Shown here: positions 39,281 to 47,212 of the stretch, piece after piece
Layout of the letters: each line of letters opens with the position of its first letter
Numbering within the stretch: position 1 is the stretch's first letter
DNA from: Pseudomonadota bacterium
Lineage (GTDB): Bacteria > Pseudomonadota > Alphaproteobacteria > Acetobacterales > Acetobacteraceae
NCBI GenBank assembly: GCA_021816925.1
Contig: JAKAWQ010000009.1
Coordinates: 2,364-66,363 of the forward strand
Length of the DNA: 64,000 nucleotides
Reading direction: 5' to 3'
The notes under the pieces: model-generated
What the model was told of the DNA's origin: nothing
What the model saw: the letters and a program-made list of their open reading frames with translations, nothing else
Databases searched by the model: none
Program-made: the position numbers and the translations under genes

Positions 39281-39610
39281 TCATCCCGGCCTTCCGGGCC
39301 TGAGCAGCCGGTCCGCCACCAGCCACGCCGCTCCACGCTGCCACGATACATCGTCATCGCCACTGAGATCGACGCTGCCAGACGCGATCACCTGCCCGCC
39401 CGGCACCGCGCGGATCGCGATATTCACGCTCAGGATCAGGGCTGAGACCTTCTGCACGAGGCCAGTTGCAACCGCCTCGGCTCCCACCTCCCGCGCCGGC
39501 GCAACCGCGCACCCGTTGCACCCCGCAAGGTCGTTCCCGGCGATCACGCGCGCGATCGGCTGCACGCTGCTGGCGACATAGGTGCCCGAGTGCTCGAGGA
39601 GCCGCATCAC
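39281..39610 (-). CDS. hypothetical protein; possible last gene (14) of the novel operon
   Basis: 109-aa ORF with GTG/ATG starts at 39610/39607. It is in the same orientation as gene 13 and 135 nt downstream of it. No clear SD or family was found, and its frame stays open upstream without a canonical start. Confidence 0.35.
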   Translation of the reverse strand: MMRLLEHSGTYVASSVQPIARVIAGNDLAGCNGCAVAPAREVGAEAVATGLVQKVSALILSVNIAIRAVPGGQVIASGSVDLSGDDDVSWQRGAAWLVADRLLRPGRPG

Positions 39611-39744
39611 CCGCTCCTGAATCCGCCGGATGCGCGCGAGATCAGCCGGGTTCGGCCGCGCGCCGGGGGCAGGATGGCTCGTGTCTTCGAGCGTGAACGG
39701 AAGGAAGGTGGTTCGGAGCGGCGCTCCCGCCCGCGCCCGCGCCG

Positions 39745-40203
39745 TTACCGGCAGCAGCCCGAGATGCCAGGCTCACAGCACCCGCAACCCATGAGCGCAC
39801 AGCAATCCGTTGCACAGCAGCAATGGCAGCCGCAACCGTATCCGTGTTCACCGCGCCAGCCTTCACCGTGCGGCAACATCTCCGCCGCGCCCCCGAGCGC
39901 GCCCGCACTGCTCGCGAGCACCGCATTGAGGAGTTCGATGCCGAGTCTCACCGTCGTGCCGAGCCCCTCGCCGATTGTGCGCACCCCGCCCGCGCTTCCG
40001 CCGGCCGCCCCACCCGGCGCGCCGAACAGCGCGAGCGAGGGAGGCACCGCCCAACCCGGCATCGCGCCCGGCATCACGCCCCCGGGCGGCATCATCACCG
40101 GCATCATCATCGGTCCCGCTGCCGCCATGCGCGCCTTGTAGCGCGCGAATTCCGCCTCCGCTGCGCTCGAAGGACGTTCCGCACCACCATCCGATCCGCT
40201 CAT
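39745..40203 (-). CDS. novel-operon gene 13: Met/Pro-rich protein with an extreme C-terminal Cys cluster
   Basis: The ATG at 40203 is preceded by GGGAGGGGCGGAG. The product is 152 aa. It has a Met-rich segment (PMMMPVMMPPGGVMPGAMPG), a Gly/Leu amphipathic segment and the tail GCGCHCCCATDCCALMGCGCCEPGISGCCR (12 Cys in 30 aa). Confidence 0.75.
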   Translation of the reverse strand: MSGSDGGAERPSSAAEAEFARYKARMAAAGPMMMPVMMPPGGVMPGAMPGWAVPPSLALFGAPGGAAGGSAGGVRTIGEGLGTTVRLGIELLNAVLASSAGALGGAAEMLPHGEGWRGEHGYGCGCHCCCATDCCALMGCGCCEPGISGCCR

Positions 40204-40219
40204 CTCCGCCCCTCCCTGC

Positions 40220-40798
40220 TCAGCAGCCGCAAATGAAAATCTCGCACCAGCGCACGCGCGCCGTCGCGTTGAGCGCCATCGCGACGAGCTTCGCTCCCGG
40301 CTTGGTCGTGATCACGCCCTCCTTTACGCGATAGGGCGTGCCCGCATTCTCCTGCCGTGCCCATAGCATCGCCGTGCCTTCGCTGTCGGTCACTTCGATC
40401 AGCACGATGAAGGGTTGCGTCGTCACCGACGCCGCGTACTCCACCGAAAGCGAGACACAGCACCCCCCGCCGATGAAGGCGGTGGCGGTCCCCAGGTTCT
40501 GCGTCTGCAGCGCCTGCGGACTCACCTCCGCGCCCGTCGGCTGCACGCGCTCGAGCATCGCCTTCGTCATCGTCGAGAGTTGCCCCACGGCCGCGCCCGG
40601 GGTGGCTCCCGCCGTGTCCCCTTGCTTCGCCGCCGGCTGCACGAGCAGCTCCTTCGCCTCGCGCCTGCACTCCCGGCAGCCGCAGCGGCAGTCCCCGCTC
40701 GGCGCGCCGCAGCGCCGGCAATGCCCCGGTGACCCGTACGTCATCGGTGCCCAGGCGCGCGTGCCCGTGTAGCGGGCCGCCTCGAACGGTCTGAACAT
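40220..40798 (-). CDS. novel-operon gene 12: Cys-rich protein, paralogue of gene 11
   Basis: The ATG at 40798 is preceded by AAGGGAGAGG. The product is 192 aa. It has an N-terminal HCRRCGAPSGDCRCGCRECRRE, a beta-rich core (...VSLSVEYAASV...) and the C-terminus ...NATARVRWCEIFICGC. Confidence 0.75.
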   Translation of the reverse strand: MFRPFEAARYTGTRAWAPMTYGSPGHCRRCGAPSGDCRCGCRECRREAKELLVQPAAKQGDTAGATPGAAVGQLSTMTKAMLERVQPTGAEVSPQALQTQNLGTATAFIGGGCCVSLSVEYAASVTTQPFIVLIEVTDSEGTAMLWARQENAGTPYRVKEGVITTKPGAKLVAMALNATARVRWCEIFICGC

Positions 40799-40817
40799 CG
40801 CAGCCTCTCCCTTTACC

Positions 40818-41219
40818 TCAGCAGCATACCCGCTCGCACCAGCGCACGCGCGCCGTCACGTTCGTCACCGCAAGCGTCACGGTCGATCCCGCCGCCACCG
40901 CACCCAGCCCCTCGTACACATGGTAGCCGGCCGCCGGGCTCGGATCGCTCCAGGTGGTCGCCGTTCCTCCGCTCGAGACAATCGTCACCGTCACCGAGGG
41001 CGTCGTGGCTCCGCTCGCCACCGAATACTCCACCGTGAGCCGGCTTTCTCCCCGGCCGCCCACCATCCCCGAGTTCGTCGGCGCCTTTGCGTCCGCGTCA
41101 ATCTCCTCCACCACCGTCTGCTCGGCCGCGCCCGGCCAGGGCAACACCGGAACCCACATCACGGGATAGCAGCCGCACGGCGGCGGGCCGCCGCATGGCC
41201 TCGGCGAATGCGCGTACAT
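40818..41219 (-). CDS. novel-operon gene 11: Cys-rich protein, paralogue of gene 12
   Basis: The ATG at 41219 is preceded by AAGGAGAGGG. The product is 133 aa. It has an N-terminal PCGGPPPCGC, a core (...SRLTVEYSVAS...) and the C-terminus ...NVTARVRWCERVCC. Confidence 0.75.
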   Translation of the reverse strand: MYAHSPRPCGGPPPCGCYPVMWVPVLPWPGAAEQTVVEEIDADAKAPTNSGMVGGRGESRLTVEYSVASGATTPSVTVTIVSSGGTATTWSDPSPAAGYHVYEGLGAVAAGSTVTLAVTNVTARVRWCERVCC

Positions 41220-41231
41220 CGTCCCTCTCCT

Positions 41232-41432
41232 TCAGCTTTGCGGCGGCTTGCCCGGCGCCGCCTCCGGTTTCGTCAAATCCCGTACGATCCCGAGCACGTC
41301 GTTCACGATTCCGAAGCCTGCGCTGACGAACCCCGTCACACTGTCCGAGATCTTCTGCGGGATCTTGTTGTCGATCAGCGCGGCGGCGGCGTCGTGCACC
41401 AGCTCACCCACCGGTCCCAGGATCCGTGCCAT
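41232..41432 (-). CDS. novel-operon gene 10: small (66 aa) amphipathic protein
   Basis: The ATG at 41432 is preceded by GAGGGAGAAGG. The product is MARILGPVGELVHDAAAALIDNKIPQKISDSVTGFVSAGFGIVNDVLGIVRDL... Confidence 0.65.
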   Translation of the reverse strand: MARILGPVGELVHDAAAALIDNKIPQKISDSVTGFVSAGFGIVNDVLGIVRDLTKPEAAPGKPPQS

Positions 41433-41447: not shown

Positions 41448-42884
41448 TCACGCCCGCGCAGGCGCGGCCATCGCCGCCACTTCGCGCTCGGCGAGCCGGA
41501 GCGCCTTGCTCGCCACTTCAAAGCCCCAGCCGAGCTGCGGCATCGGGTCGCAGAGCGCCGCCCCGCCGGCCCGCGTGAAGCTTTCCGCCGCCCTCCGCGC
41601 GAGACCCCGCTCGCCCTCGTGCCAACGCAAAACCGCTTGCCACGCTCCGAGATCCTTCGGAAACGCCCGCCGGAGCGCCGCCGGCGAAACCGCCAGACGC
41701 TGCGCCAGCACGCCGCTGAACACGCCCGCCGCGAAGGCGCGGAAGCCGGCATCTCCCGCCGTCAGCCGCCCGATCCGCTCCAGCACCAGCAGGCAGAAAT
41801 CGCGGATCGCCGGGTTCTTCGCGATCGTCAGGAAAAGCTCCGCCGTCTGCCAGTCCGCACCTGTTTCACTCTCCCAGAGGCGGCGGTACAGGGCCAGCGT
41901 GCGCCGGGAAAAATCCCCCGCTGCGAACGCCGCTTCCGCCGCCCGCGCCGCATAGAAGGCGCTCTCCATCGCCTTGTGGATGCCGCCGCCGTTCAGCGGA
42001 TCCGCCTGGTTCGCGGCATCCCCCACCAGCATCACCCGCTCATCGAAGATCTTGTCCGGCCGGAAGAACGCCGAAGAGCCGCCGGCAACTGCGCCCAACC
42101 GTTCCGCCCCAGAAAGAACCTCGGCAAGCTCACGCCTCAGAAATCGCCGGAACGTGGCGCCCGGCGCTTCGGGGAGCGGGAAAGCGGGGTCGAGCGCATA
42201 GCCGAGCCCGATATTCGCGAACCCCGTCTCGTCGGCGAAGAGCCACCCGTAGCCCGGAAAATAGGAGCGGTCGAAATAGACCTTGATCGGCGCGCCCTCG
42301 CATTTCACGCCGGTGAAATAGGCGCGTACCGAAACCGCCATCACGCCCGTCTTCAGCCGGTTGCCGATCGCCCGTGACACCGCGGAGGAAACGCCGTCCG
42401 CGCCGATCACGATGCGGCCGCGAAACTCCTCGCTTTTTCCGCCGCTCCTCGCGAACACGCTCGCGTATCCCCGCTCGCGTGACACGCCGCGCACCACCGG
42501 GCCGGCCCGGAATTGCGCGCCGTTGGCAAGTGCATTGCGAAGCAGGATATGGTCGAAGCGCCGCCGGTCGAGCAGCACGGCGAAGTCCGGATAGAGCGTG
42601 CGTTGCGGAAATCCCGCGCTCAGCGTTTTTCTTCCGTTGATGTAAAGATCGCACGCCTTGATGCAGCCCTTGGTCTCGGCCAGCACTTCCTCTGCGCAGC
42701 CGAGCCGGTCGAGCCAGGCGATCGCTTGCGGCGTGAGCCCGTCCCCGCACACCTTCTCGCGCGGGAAGTCCGCCTTGTCGAGAACGAGCACGTCCATCCC
42801 ACGACCCGCAAGAAAGCTCGCGGCCGCGGCCCCGCCCGGCCCCGCACCCACCACGATCACGTCATGCAGGGCCGCCGCGTTCAT
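41448..42884 (-). CDS. novel-operon gene 9: FAD-dependent geranylgeranyl-reductase family (MenJ-like) oxidoreductase with a roughly 100-aa C-terminal extension
   Basis: 478 aa. It has an FAD motif (VIVVGAGPGGAAAASFLAGRGMDVLVLDK) followed by FPREKVCGDGLTPQA, characteristic of the GGR family, then later GDAANQADPLNGGGI. The ATG overlaps the gene 8 stop as ATGA. Confidence 0.85.
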   Translation of the reverse strand: MNAAALHDVIVVGAGPGGAAAASFLAGRGMDVLVLDKADFPREKVCGDGLTPQAIAWLDRLGCAEEVLAETKGCIKACDLYINGRKTLSAGFPQRTLYPDFAVLLDRRRFDHILLRNALANGAQFRAGPVVRGVSRERGYASVFARSGGKSEEFRGRIVIGADGVSSAVSRAIGNRLKTGVMAVSVRAYFTGVKCEGAPIKVYFDRSYFPGYGWLFADETGFANIGLGYALDPAFPLPEAPGATFRRFLRRELAEVLSGAERLGAVAGGSSAFFRPDKIFDERVMLVGDAANQADPLNGGGIHKAMESAFYAARAAEAAFAAGDFSRRTLALYRRLWESETGADWQTAELFLTIAKNPAIRDFCLLVLERIGRLTAGDAGFRAFAAGVFSGVLAQRLAVSPAALRRAFPKDLGAWQAVLRWHEGERGLARRAAESFTRAGGAALCDPMPQLGWGFEVASKALRLAEREVAAMAAPARA

Positions 42885-43549
42885 CCGCTCGCCTCCACCG
42901 AAAGGAGCACAGGAATGCGTATCGTCCCCTCGCCCAGCACCACTACGCTGCCCCGATAGAGATCGGGCGGCAGTGCGTCGGGAATCATTCCTTCCAGCAA
43001 AAATTTCTCGAAATCCATCGGCGCGATCGCGATCTCCGGCGGCGTGACGCCGAGCGCGCCCTCGGGCAAAGTCGCGCCGGTCCGCTCACCCGCGAACGCC
43101 TCGACGAGAAGGCGCACGGGCTTCGCCGCCTCGGCCGATTCGTTATTGATCGAGAATGAAATGCGCACCGCACCGCCGGGCCGGAGCGGCAGGCGGTTGG
43201 TGATGCCGTAGGAGGGCGTCGCCGCGGCCGCGCCGGGCGCCATCGCGGCCAGAGGCCCCGGAGCCGCCGCCCCAGGTGCAACGCCCGGCGCCGCCGGCGG
43301 TTCCTCCGCTTGAGGGCTCAGCATCCGCTCGATGATCTTCGTCTGCGCCGCACTGCCGATCGTGCCGAGCATGGTAAGACCGAGCGAGAGCCCCGCCTCC
43401 GCGAGATCGAGCCCGCGCGCGAGCAACTCCCCGAACCGGTCGAGCCGCGCCTTGAGGTCAAGCGTGTCCTCCGGCGGCTGCGCTGGTGCCGCCTCGGACG
43501 GCGCCGCTCCGCCGGGTGCGGCCGCGCTGCCGTTGCCCCGCTCAGCCAC
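42881..43549 (-). CDS. novel-operon gene 8: hypothetical protein (amphipathic N-region, Pro/Ala linker, beta-sandwich-like C-domain)
   Basis: 222 aa with a GTG start at 43549 that overlaps the end of gene 7 by 8 nt. The C-terminal segment ...AVRISFSINNESAEAAKPVRLLVEAF...YRGSVVVLGEGTIRIPVLLSVE looks like an Ig/CARDB-type beta-sandwich (inference). Confidence 0.6.
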   Translation of the reverse strand: MAERGNGSAAAPGGAAPSEAAPAQPPEDTLDLKARLDRFGELLARGLDLAEAGLSLGLTMLGTIGSAAQTKIIERMLSPQAEEPPAAPGVAPGAAAPGPLAAMAPGAAAATPSYGITNRLPLRPGGAVRISFSINNESAEAAKPVRLLVEAFAGERTGATLPEGALGVTPPEIAIAPMDFEKFLLEGMIPDALPPDLYRGSVVVLGEGTIRIPVLLSVEASG

Positions 43550-43778
43550 GGCACCGGCACCCGTAGCAGGGCGGCTCGCAGCGGATGCACCATTCCTCGT
43601 GCATGCACGGGCGGGCCGGACATTCCAGGCCCCACACGATTCCCTCCGCCGTCTCGCGGATCATGCGCATCTCCCGGCGCGCAAGATGCACCGCCATATG
43701 CCCGAGCCGGACCGCGAGCACCGGCAACACCCCCGCCAGAAGCGCGAGCCCATCCGTCGCCGGCGGCCGACGCCGCAT
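43542..43778 (-). CDS. novel-operon gene 7: small (78 aa) single-TM protein with a Cys-rich C-terminus
   Basis: The ATG at 43778 is preceded by GGGAGG and lies 1 nt after the gene 6 stop. It has a hydrophobic helix (LALLAGVLPVLAV) and the tail ECPARPCMHEEWCIRCEPPCYGCRCRG (7 Cys). It is hidden inside the longer track ORF 43542..44099. Confidence 0.6.
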   Translation of the reverse strand: MRRRPPATDGLALLAGVLPVLAVRLGHMAVHLARREMRMIRETAEGIVWGLECPARPCMHEEWCIRCEPPCYGCRCRG

Positions 43779-46291: not shown

Positions 46292-47212
46292 TCATTCATA
46301 GACATCCCACGCCCCACCGTCCTGCCGCTGCCGGCGATGCTTCTCCAGCCGGGTCGCGTAGTAGCGCCCGAGGAAGCCGAGCAAGAGCGAGCGCCCCGGC
46401 CCCGGCTCGAGACTCGCCTCGATCCGCCGGCGATGCCTCGCGTAGATACGACCGAGTGCGCGCTCCGGAGCATTGAGCCGGTTCATGTATGTCACCCGCC
46501 CCTCCTTGCGGTCGGCGTGGCAGTCGCCGTGATCGTCGATGAACATGATCAGGGCGCCCGCGCTGAAGAGCCCCGCAAGATACGAAAGGGCAACATTTTG
46601 CACAAGGAATATCGCCAGCACCAGGATCGCGTGTCCGCTCCGGTTGCGTGCCGAGCGGCGAAGCACCGCAAGTTCCCGCGCCCGCGTGAGACCCGTCACC
46701 CGCGCCGGCTCGAGCCGCAGCATCACGTCCTCCGCCTGCGCCGCGTGCAGGTGAACGATCGCCTGGCGAAGCAGCGGCGCGAGCACGTCGCGCTCGATGA
46801 ACATGGAGGCCACGATCACGTAGAACAGCCGCTCGCGCGCGTTTCGGATCTCGAACCAGCCGGTTGCCAGCAGCCGCTCGAACCGCGCGAGATACTCGCG
46901 CGCCGCGCTCTCGCCGAAGTCGTCGAGGAAGCTGTCCGCCAGGAAGCAGCAGCAGCCGAACAGGATGGCAAGCCGCCGCCGGCCGGCATCGAAGGTTTCA
47001 CCCGCAATCTCCGTGCAGGCGTGCCCGACCAGCGCCATCTTCGCGCTGAGTTCCAGCATCTTGCGGTATTCCGGCCCGTTCGCGGCCGCCAGTGCCGGGT
47101 AATAGGCCCCGACCAGCGGCGCGAGAACTTCCTTCACCTCGCCGCGATAGCGCCGCGAGAGTTCTTCGAGGCGAGCCGCGTCGGCCCCTTCGCCCGCCGC
47201 CAACCCGGCCAT
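46292..47212 (-). CDS. novel-operon gene 1: helical protein with two Asp-rich motifs (isoprenoid-synthase-like; inference)
   Basis: The likely start is the ATG at 47212, with GGAG 5 nt upstream; the track extends to 47374. The product is 306 aa. It has DSFLDD at residues 93-98 (46919-46936) and DDHGDCHAD at residues 226-234 (46511-46537), about 133 residues apart. Confidence 0.65.
   Translation of the reverse strand: MAGLAAGEGADAARLEELSRRYRGEVKEVLAPLVGAYYPALAAANGPEYRKMLELSAKMALVGHACTEIAGETFDAGRRRLAILFGCCCFLADSFLDDFGESAAREYLARFERLLATGWFEIRNARERLFYVIVASMFIERDVLAPLLRQAIVHLHAAQAEDVMLRLEPARVTGLTRARELAVLRRSARNRSGHAILVLAIFLVQNVALSYLAGLFSAGALIMFIDDHGDCHADRKEGRVTYMNRLNAPERALGRIYARHRRRIEASLEPGPGRSLLLGFLGRYYATRLEKHRRQRQDGGAWDVYE

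Follow-up and report, generated by a model that had tools for sequence, protein, structure and literature searches.

Background

Substrates have been proven for only a few enzymes of the geranylgeranyl reductase (GGR) superfamily; they comprise lipids of archaea, menaquinone, chlorophyll and tocopherol and, as a recent addition, sterols of bacteria. The present work concerns a flavin adenine dinucleotide (FAD) flavoprotein of this superfamily, encoded in a 64,000-nucleotide stretch of contig JAKAWQ010000009.1 (assembly GCA_021816925.1) from a bacterium of the Acetobacteraceae. This whole stretch is referred to as the window and the flavoprotein as the reductase. The reductase is gene 9 of a minus-strand operon of 13 genes, and a reading of the window made from its letters alone (the sequence-only reading) had placed it in the GGR family. 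Comparison with its closest described relatives indicates that the reductase founds a separate, so far undescribed GGR clade, whose members may act on an isoprenoid made within the same gene module.

MenJ, the menaquinone beta-isoprene reductase of Mycobacterium, and the actinobacterial MenJ-like or ScGGR proteins have the same FAD fold as the reductase, a nearly identical motif FPR(D/E)KVCGDGLTP(Q/R)A with its Cys, and a GYGWxF core. The reductase differs from them in carrying GGG instead of GEG, in having a tail of 177 rather than 109 residues, in its separate clade and in its location within a 13-gene operon of uncharacterized proteins. The archaeal enzymes of Thermoplasma (TaGGR, 3oz2) and Sulfolobus (SaGGR, 3atq) share the three domains, the Cys, GGG and YxWxF...GxG with the reductase, and 3oz2 gives both the best TMt and the best profile E-value. 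Sequence identity to these two enzymes is, however, limited to 20-22%, the alignment stops near residue 339, Ala or Val replaces the Pro of YxWxFP, an additional invariant His-Lys follows GGG, and the C-terminal domain is about 70-76 residues longer than that of TaGGR and about 25 residues longer than that of SaGGR. Unlike the archaeal lipid reductases, the reductase is bacterial and has no recognisable ether-lipid gene nearby.

Three further systems are relevant to the comparison. Bsr, the bacterial sterol C-24 reductase of Myxococcota, is a GGR homologue in a dedicated gene cluster (PMC12004948); it saturates one isoprenoid-derived double bond, and its function was first inferred from gene context. 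Bsr clusters with MenJ and is found among recognisable sterol genes, whereas the reductase belongs to a separate clade and its cluster partners are uncharacterized. By analogy, Bsr offers a precedent for a cluster-embedded GGR homologue with a new isoprenoid substrate. LipT, from the LipS1/LipS2 lipoate assembly system (PMC10332631), is likewise an operon-embedded superfamily flavoprotein that keeps the Cys, and it serves a protein-borne cofactor. LipT falls in a different clade, the LipT-like copy of the present genome is a 378-residue protein with a short tail, and the lipS1-lipT-lipS2-slpl(AB) context does not occur at the reductase locus. Finally, the carrier-protein-dependent halogenases (PltA, 5dbj; Mpy16, 5buk; ChlB4, 7fco) reach equal Foldseek E-values and also have helical C-terminal regions, but they lack the Cys and possess a WxWxIP motif and a Lys-bearing loop, both of which are missing in the reductase.

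The reductase gene and its family

The features of the gene, all on the minus strand, are as follows.

41448..42884, minus strand: GGR-superfamily FAD flavoprotein, gene 9 of the operon, 478 amino acids (TIGR02032, AlphaFold2, Foldseek)
42881..42884, minus strand: gene 8 stop overlapping the reductase start as ATGA (sequence)
42831..42848, minus strand: GxGxxG dinucleotide (FAD) binding motif GAGPGG, residues 13-18 (G13, G15, P16 and G18 invariant in 98 family members)
42723..42767, minus strand: FPREKVCGDGLTPQA, residues 40-54, with the GGR active-site Cys46 (invariant, aligned to the TaGGR Cys)
42201..42251, minus strand: YGWLFA-x8-GLG, residues 212-228, a variant of YxWxFP-x7-8-GxG (motif definition from PMC6309074)
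41973..42023, minus strand: GDAANQADPLNGGGIHK, residues 288-304, with the GD flavin motif, an archaeal-type GGG and the clade-specific invariant His303-Lys304 (alignment)
41451..41894, minus strand: clade-specific all-helical C-terminal domain, residues 331-478 (AlphaFold2, profile search)

The open reading frame is uninterrupted over its 478 residues. Its GC fractions at the three codon positions (0.71, 0.53 and 0.82) fit the genuine genes of the window, which has 68% GC, unlike those of the plus-strand frame that overlaps it (0.83, 0.56 and 0.67). The sequence-only reading had described a start overlapping the stop of gene 8 and a position in the middle of an operon. Both descriptions proved accurate: the ATGA is accompanied by a GGAGG Shine-Dalgarno sequence a few bases 5' of the reductase ATG, and the reductase is the ninth of 13 genes on the same strand, joined by junctions of -8 to +19 nucleotides. 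The sequence strings quoted in that reading were all located (GAGPGG at residues 13-18, FPREKVCGDGLTPQA at residues 40-54 and AKNPAIRDF...GVFSG at residues 355-391). No transmembrane segment was detected in the reductase, the maximum 19-residue hydropathy being 1.58, at the FAD motif. The gene encodes a real coding FAD protein of the GGR superfamily.

Membership of the family was supported by the curated superfamily model TIGR02032 (GG-red-SF), which the reductase matched with 197.2 bits against a cutoff of 158.8 over residues 8-315 (model positions 2-296 of 297), by the alignment of its Cys to the active-site Cys of the Thermoplasma enzyme, and by a fold corresponding to 3oz2. Among the NCBIfam models of known function, MenJ (NF045655) scored best, with 118.3 bits against a cutoff of 700. 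The archaeal digeranylgeranylglycerophospholipid (DGGGPL) reductase models NF041080, NF041160 and NF041385 gave 109, 81 and 85 bits (cutoffs 580, 780 and 700), QhpG 106.9 (240), BchP/ChlP (TIGR02023) 92.9 (343.3), the halogenase CmlS 78.5 (900), and LodB and GoxB 55.5 and 53.7 (400 each). PRK11445, labelled only 'FAD-binding protein' and which we take to be CbrA, gave 52 bits against 303. The matches to models of known function all stop between residues 316 and 346. The earlier description of the protein as 'MenJ-like' holds for the motif (FPREKVCGDGLTPQA compared with FPREKVCGDGLTPRA in the actinobacterial proteins) and fails as a statement of MenJ orthology.

Meadows et al. (PMC6309074) list the features common to GGRs proven on prenyl substrates as an active-site Cys, YxWxFP-x7-8-GxG and GGG, the last being REG or GEG in bacterial and phototroph enzymes. 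In their numbering the active-site Cys, located behind the isoalloxazine ring, is Cys47 of SaGGR and Cys45 of TaGGR. The corresponding Cys46 of the reductase (in KVCGDGL) does not vary among the 98 family members and aligns with the Cys of VRCGEGL in TaGGR (3oz2) and of KPCGDAV in SaGGR. In the second motif (Y212-G-W214-L-F216-A217-x8-G226-L-G228) every position is kept except the Pro, which is Ala in the reductase, Val in most relatives and Gly in MenJ-like proteins. The third motif, G299-G300-G301, is invariant or nearly so, whereas the MenJ-like, BchP and long-clade proteins of the set (the last described below) have GEG instead. Taken together, these chemistry-defining motifs favour a GGR-type reductase.

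The AlphaFold2 model of the reductase (pLDDT 88.9, pTM 0.89) displays a three-domain fold with FAD-binding, catalytic and helical C-terminal domains. Foldseek comparison with 3oz2 gave a TMq of 0.69 and a TMt of 0.82, and SaGGR entries gave a TMq of 0.64-0.69. When a profile of the 98 family members was searched against solved structures, 3oz2 was again the best match (E 1e-39, residues 2-339), followed by flavin halogenases and the Sulfolobus GGR. At the GGR Cys position the halogenase ChlB4 has a gap; it carries TWMWQIP and an inserted Lys-bearing loop ('pkkyga') that does not occur in the reductase family. A flavin-dependent halogenase was ruled out on the presence of the Cys, YGWLFA in place of WxWxIP, the missing Lys-bearing loop and the CmlS score of 78.5 against 900.

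A separate clade with its own C-terminal domain

A tree was calculated from 334 core-domain columns (IQ-TREE, LG+G4, 1000 ultrafast bootstraps). It included the window protein, 17 relatives of the same operon type (island-type, after the conserved gene island described below), 17 'long' proteins of other phyla, 4 short bacterial proteins, 15 MenJ-like proteins, 4 BchP proteins of alphaproteobacterial phototrophs, the LipT-like paralogue and the TaGGR and SaGGR cores, with ChlB4 as outgroup. The island proteins form a single clade outside all other clades of the tree. Clades without island proteins were recovered for the MenJ-like proteins (ultrafast bootstrap 100), BchP (100), the archaeal enzymes plus LipT (77) and two groups of long proteins (100 each), and the branch joining all non-island GGRs has 89% support. 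The remaining deep nodes have 20-66% support and there is a single outgroup, so the exact root is not trusted. Placement within a clade of known function had been named in the sequence-only reading as an objection to its proposal; the reductase falls in no such clade, and this exclusion is robust. Judged from alignment and tree, the reductase founds a separate, so far undescribed GGR clade. The clade retains the active-site Cys, YxWxF...GxG and GGG, and adds to them an invariant His-Lys after GGG and an enlarged helical C-terminal domain.

The size of this domain can be compared through the length of the tail, counted from the end of the GD...GGG motif.

Reductase of the window: 177 amino acids
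119 close relatives: median 183 amino acids
Actinobacterial MenJ-like proteins (n=56): 109 amino acids
Short bacterial group: 82 amino acids
TaGGR: about 101 amino acids
SaGGR: about 152 amino acids

The C-terminal extension claimed from the sequence thus exists and is conserved, but its size is about 70 residues relative to MenJ-like proteins and TaGGR and about 25 relative to SaGGR, rather than the roughly 100 first estimated. The last two long helices of the model (424-445 and 447-473) approximate the extra part. Confidence across the domain is pLDDT 72-92 up to residue 470 and 63 for the final eight residues. The best 120 relatives span 94-100% of the reductase query, and invariant tail residues extend as far as W453. 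The domain superposes poorly on that of SaGGR (root-mean-square deviation 9-11 Å).

A profile of residues 340-478 gave full-length matches only among the island proteins and the 'long' GGRs of other phyla. It matched 0 of 56 MenJ-like proteins, and the sole BchP match was noise (E 2.1, 0.8 bits). Searched alone in 1.84 billion representative proteins, the C-terminal domain was found in just 39 clusters, which consist either of proteins of 469-506 residues that end in this domain or of gene fragments. Because it is restricted to these 39 clusters and is always C-terminal, it is a rare, clade-defining domain rather than a fused module from elsewhere. A grouping of the island and long clades was not recovered in the core-domain tree, and the link between them is their common C-terminal domain only.

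The conserved island operon

Nine full loci have an identical gene order of eight genes, the reductase and four genes: the window, L001-L004, L119 and L121-L123. Their hosts are Acetobacteraceae, Rhizomicrobium, Caulobacter, Reyranella, Hypericibacter and the betaproteobacterium Paraburkholderia. Two partial Nitrospira contigs show the downstream half of this order. In the loci examined, a reductase of the island clade always resides within this operon. The neighbours of the reductase in the window that are relevant here are the following.

46292..47212, minus strand: gene 1, candidate isoprenoid source or transferase carrying a pair of invariant Asp-rich motifs (alignment)
43542..43778, minus strand: gene 7, 78 amino acids, with a Cys-rich C-terminus (..CIRCEPPCYGCRCRG) (sequence)
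42881..43549, minus strand: gene 8, 222 amino acids, conserved upstream partner of the reductase (AlphaFold2, Foldseek, homologues)
41232..41432, minus strand: gene 10, 66-amino-acid amphipathic protein starting 15 nucleotides after the reductase stop (sequence)
39745..41219, minus strand: genes 11, 12 and 13, candidate acceptor proteins of small size, whose C-termini are CC, CGC and a 12-Cys tail (sequence)

Gene 1 carries the motifs FLADSFxDDF and IDDHGDCxxD, which are invariant in the alignment and about 130 residues apart. A gene 1-type protein and the reductase are linked gene for gene in all nine full island contexts. At the sequence level gene 1 had no relatives in Pfam, NCBIfam or the Protein Data Bank (PDB), where a profile search produced a chance match only. 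The possibility that gene 1 is a divergent polyprenyl synthase of family PF00348 was rejected, as hhalign found no similarity (probability 0.1).

In its model, the gene 8 product begins with a disordered N-terminal segment, followed by a long helix at residues 29-77, a flexible linker and an immunoglobulin (Ig)-like beta-sandwich (pLDDT 97-98). The structures nearest to the beta-sandwich in Foldseek are PapD-like, ASH and MSP domains, including HYDIN, CEP192 and the pilus chaperones Caf1M and FimC. Its family comprises 180 unannotated proteins, and its homologues adjoin the reductase in both the island and the long-clade loci. The two genes overlap by 4 nucleotides in L119, 1 in L121 and 4 in L122, and are separated by 31 nucleotides in L123. 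Several gene 8 homologues are labelled 'ATP synthase subunit c' by JGI, which looks like a mis-annotation arising from the long Gly/Ala-rich helix. A gene of the size of gene 7 occupies the same position in L119 and L121-L123, and a gene for 62-76 residues occupies the gene 10 position in all island loci.

Eight operon genes besides the reductase (1, 2, 4-6, 8, 11 and 12) and an adjoining DUF3280 gene were scanned against Pfam and NCBIfam, and no match was obtained except DUF3280 itself. The statement of the sequence-only reading that quinone, chlorophyll and ether-lipid genes are missing nearby agrees with this result, as none was recognisable among the scanned neighbours. The DUF3280 (DUF2380) gene (window 39281-39772) is located 3' of the operon here and in the closest relatives, L119 and L120, and does not follow the operon in L121-L123; it is probably outside the module.

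In L002 (11458-12909), and also in L001, L003 and L004, a tandem second reductase of 483-484 residues directly follows the island reductase. This paralogue does not occur in the window, L119 or L121-L123. It retains the FAD motif as well as the long C-terminal domain, has TVR[S/C]DGL in place of KVCGDGL (active-site Cys replaced), RGG in place of GGG and IHT in place of IHK, and reaches 152.9 bits against the superfamily cutoff of 158.8. Since it is nested within the island clade, it represents a lineage-specific duplication, and it is possibly a pseudo-enzyme partner.

Long-tailed reductases in other phyla

The second, 'long' group with the same C-terminal domain is found in Bacteroidota, Chloroflexota and Acidobacteriota. 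A PF00348 polyprenyl synthase (104-200 bits) is encoded directly beside the long-tailed reductase in six of six loci, from Chitinophaga, Segetibacter, Aequorivita, two Chloroflexia and one Terriglobia genome; in Aequorivita the two genes are 3 nucleotides apart. The best NCBIfam matches of this neighbour are short-chain IdsA and geranylgeranyl diphosphate (GGPP) synthases, all below curated cutoffs. An IPPS-like open reading frame is present 2-3 kb away in three further long-clade loci. A gene-8-like Ig protein also stands next to the long-clade reductase. When hidden Markov models of genes 1-13 of the window were compared with the long-clade loci, only gene 8 was recovered, together with gene 6 in L063, and the iterated gene 8 profile matched the gene-8-like proteins of the long clade at 1e-38 to 1e-58. 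As gene 1 and PF00348 are unrelated in sequence, two different isoprenoid-type enzymes are coupled to two long-tailed clades.

Short Cys-Glu-Pro or Cys-Pro-Pro motifs were observed in otherwise unrelated module proteins across phyla. In the window they occur in gene 7 (..RCEPPC.., 43545-43622) and gene 13 (..GCCEPG.., 39748-39837). At loci of other phyla (L029:5525-7539, L011:5587-7567, L007:13378-13716, L010:13221-13562 and L063:7290-7904) the corresponding motifs are ..CCEPD or YCEPD and (F/Y)YCEP(Q/N) in Bacteroidota, LCEPICAES in Chloroflexia and Chitinophaga, and GCCCEIPPPCWEP in Terriglobia. In the Bacteroidota/Chloroflexia module a protein of 851-1168 residues adjoins a small Cys-motif protein (L010:5610-9116 and L007:13717-17311). 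This large protein has repeated beta domains together with a single hydrophobic segment, and it has no counterpart in the window island.

Distribution and the rest of the genome

The source genome is 98.4% complete and contains two GG-red-SF genes only. BchP gave no match in it at E <= 1e-60, and the best MenA match (84.3 bits) is below the cutoff of 102.15. The other GG-red-SF gene, outside the window on contig C153 (locus L082), is the short-tailed LipT-like copy of 378 residues. It is located between a LipS1-like gene (201 bits, cutoff 230) and a lipoate-protein ligase gene and adjoins Hdr-like genes. This cluster (C153:16002-20545) is of the LipT lipoate-assembly type, and the organism probably has the sHdr system of sulfur oxidation.

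A sample of 400 other alphaproteobacterial species from 308 genera contained no island-type reductase, nor did 13 other genera of the family. Within the genus, 3 of 11 other genomes carry it (4 of 12 with the window's own). In Paraburkholderia sp. CI3 a DDE transposase and a phage-integrase gene follow the island (L122:12677-14031). The patchy presence and the transposase and integrase genes suggest horizontal mobility, and the distribution is that of an accessory, mobile module rather than of a housekeeping enzyme.

Proposed function and alternatives

We propose, with a probability of about 0.55, that the reductase works as an isoprenoid C=C reductase on a prenyl group of C15-C20 which the module itself makes or transfers. 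In the window the prenyl source would be gene 1, with its two Asp-rich motifs, and in the version of other phyla it would be the canonical short-chain polyprenyl-diphosphate synthase. The reductase would hydrogenate C=C bonds of the short (C15-C20) chain supplied by its own module. Its enlarged helical domain would probably serve as a lipid-binding lid or tunnel, as a surface on which the product of gene 8 or of gene 10 docks, or in both ways, and the saturated prenyl end product could be carried as a free lipid or as a group on the Cys-rich proteins of the operon. The main argument for an isoprenoid substrate of the module's own making is that two different isoprenoid-type enzymes accompany the two long-tailed clades. 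The suggestion of the sequence-only reading that the operon itself makes or presents the substrate gains comparative support from the same observations, namely the linkage to gene 1 in nine of nine loci and the adjacency of PF00348 in six of six.

Several results weigh against this proposal. No NCBIfam model of known function exceeded its cutoff for the reductase, and the score for QhpG, a protein-modifying monooxygenase (107), is similar to those for MenJ (118) and the archaeal reductase (109). In the reductase family Ala or Val stands in place of the YxWxFP Pro, and the Foldseek E-values of Mpy16, PltA, ChlB4 and Bmp2, which are carrier-protein-dependent halogenases, are level with those of the GGRs. 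The GG-red-SF model also takes in non-prenyl enzymes; since the LipT-like paralogue of this genome keeps the Cys, the motif set does not prove that the substrate is a prenyl compound. No relation of gene 1 to known isoprenoid synthases could be detected from sequence, no reductant partner for the reductase is encoded in the operon, and the remaining operon resembles protein assembly more than a lipid pathway.

It is conceivable, although unlikely, that the module performs endogenous protein lipidation, in which gene 1 or, in other phyla, the ComQ-like polyprenyl-synthase homologue would farnesylate or geranylgeranylate Cys residues of its Cys-rich proteins (genes 7, 11, 12 and 13), and the reductase, docked by means of the additional helical domain and the Ig protein of gene 8, would saturate the protein-bound chain to a phytanyl-like anchor in a cytoplasmic assembly. 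The same proteins would be the substrates if the reductase were a monooxygenase, oxidase or halogenase-like enzyme modifying their Cys, Trp or Tyr residues in the manner of QhpG, LodB or GoxB or of the carrier-protein-dependent halogenases. The 106.9-bit QhpG match, in the range of MenJ and the archaeal GGR, and the LodB and GoxB matches of 54-56 bits are consistent with this, as are the best Foldseek E-values, which include Mpy16, PltA, ChlB4 and Bmp2, all acting on protein-tethered substrates. The neighbours are structural and Cys-rich, with no lipid enzyme recognisable by sequence, and proteins of the module in several phyla carry Cys-Glu-Pro motifs. However, these models remain far below their cutoffs (QhpG 107 against 240), and the halogenase WxWxIP and Lys-bearing loop are missing while the GGR Cys, GGG and YxWxF-GxG are kept. 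No qhp or lodA/goxA-type gene was recognisable among the scanned neighbours, and the strict tie to isoprenoid-synthase-type genes in two independent versions of the module would be left unexplained. We consider modification of this kind improbable.

The operon Cys clusters could alternatively bind metals, and the reductase could then be an accessory flavoprotein delivering electrons, for example to metal or Fe-S centres of the Cys-rich proteins. LipT is a likely electron donor (PMC10332631), the other GG-red-SF member of the genome is LipT-like and stands beside a LipS1-like gene, and no obvious lipid acceptor enzyme is present. The scanned operon genes, however, include no radical-SAM or recognisable Fe-S enzyme, the island clade is apart from the TaGGR/LipT-like branch of the tree, and neither the conserved C-terminal helical domain nor the linkage to polyprenyl synthases would be accounted for, which makes such a role quite unlikely. 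An ordinary housekeeping prenyl reductase of MenJ, BchP/ChlP, archaeal or CbrA-like type, with its pathway genes elsewhere in the genome, might be expected from the N-terminal motif, which is almost identical to that of the actinobacterial MenJ-like proteins, and from MenJ being the best model of known function. This explanation is very improbable, as all scores are far below their cutoffs (MenJ 118/700, BchP-ChlP 93/343, DGGGPL 109/580, PRK11445 52/303) and the reductase lies outside the MenJ-like, BchP and archaeal clades (bootstrap 100, 100 and 77). The genome, moreover, has no BchP at E <= 1e-60 and no MenA above cutoff. All 400 sampled alphaproteobacterial species besides this one lack the gene, as do 8 of 11 further genomes of the genus, and where present it is always inside the same operon. 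Identity with MenJ, BchP or an archaeal reductase was accordingly ruled out by the model cutoffs, the tree, the missing pathway genes and the patchy distribution.

Conclusions

The island reductases add a further deep clade to the GGR superfamily that is recognisable by a domain and a set of motifs of its own, and the substrate of this clade must differ from the proven ones. Within an undescribed 13-gene module that extends over several phyla, the reductase is the only component whose chemistry can be guessed, and it therefore offers a practical experimental handle on the module. If it is true that the lipid sits on the Cys-rich proteins, the module would constitute an endogenous bacterial system of protein prenylation and saturation.

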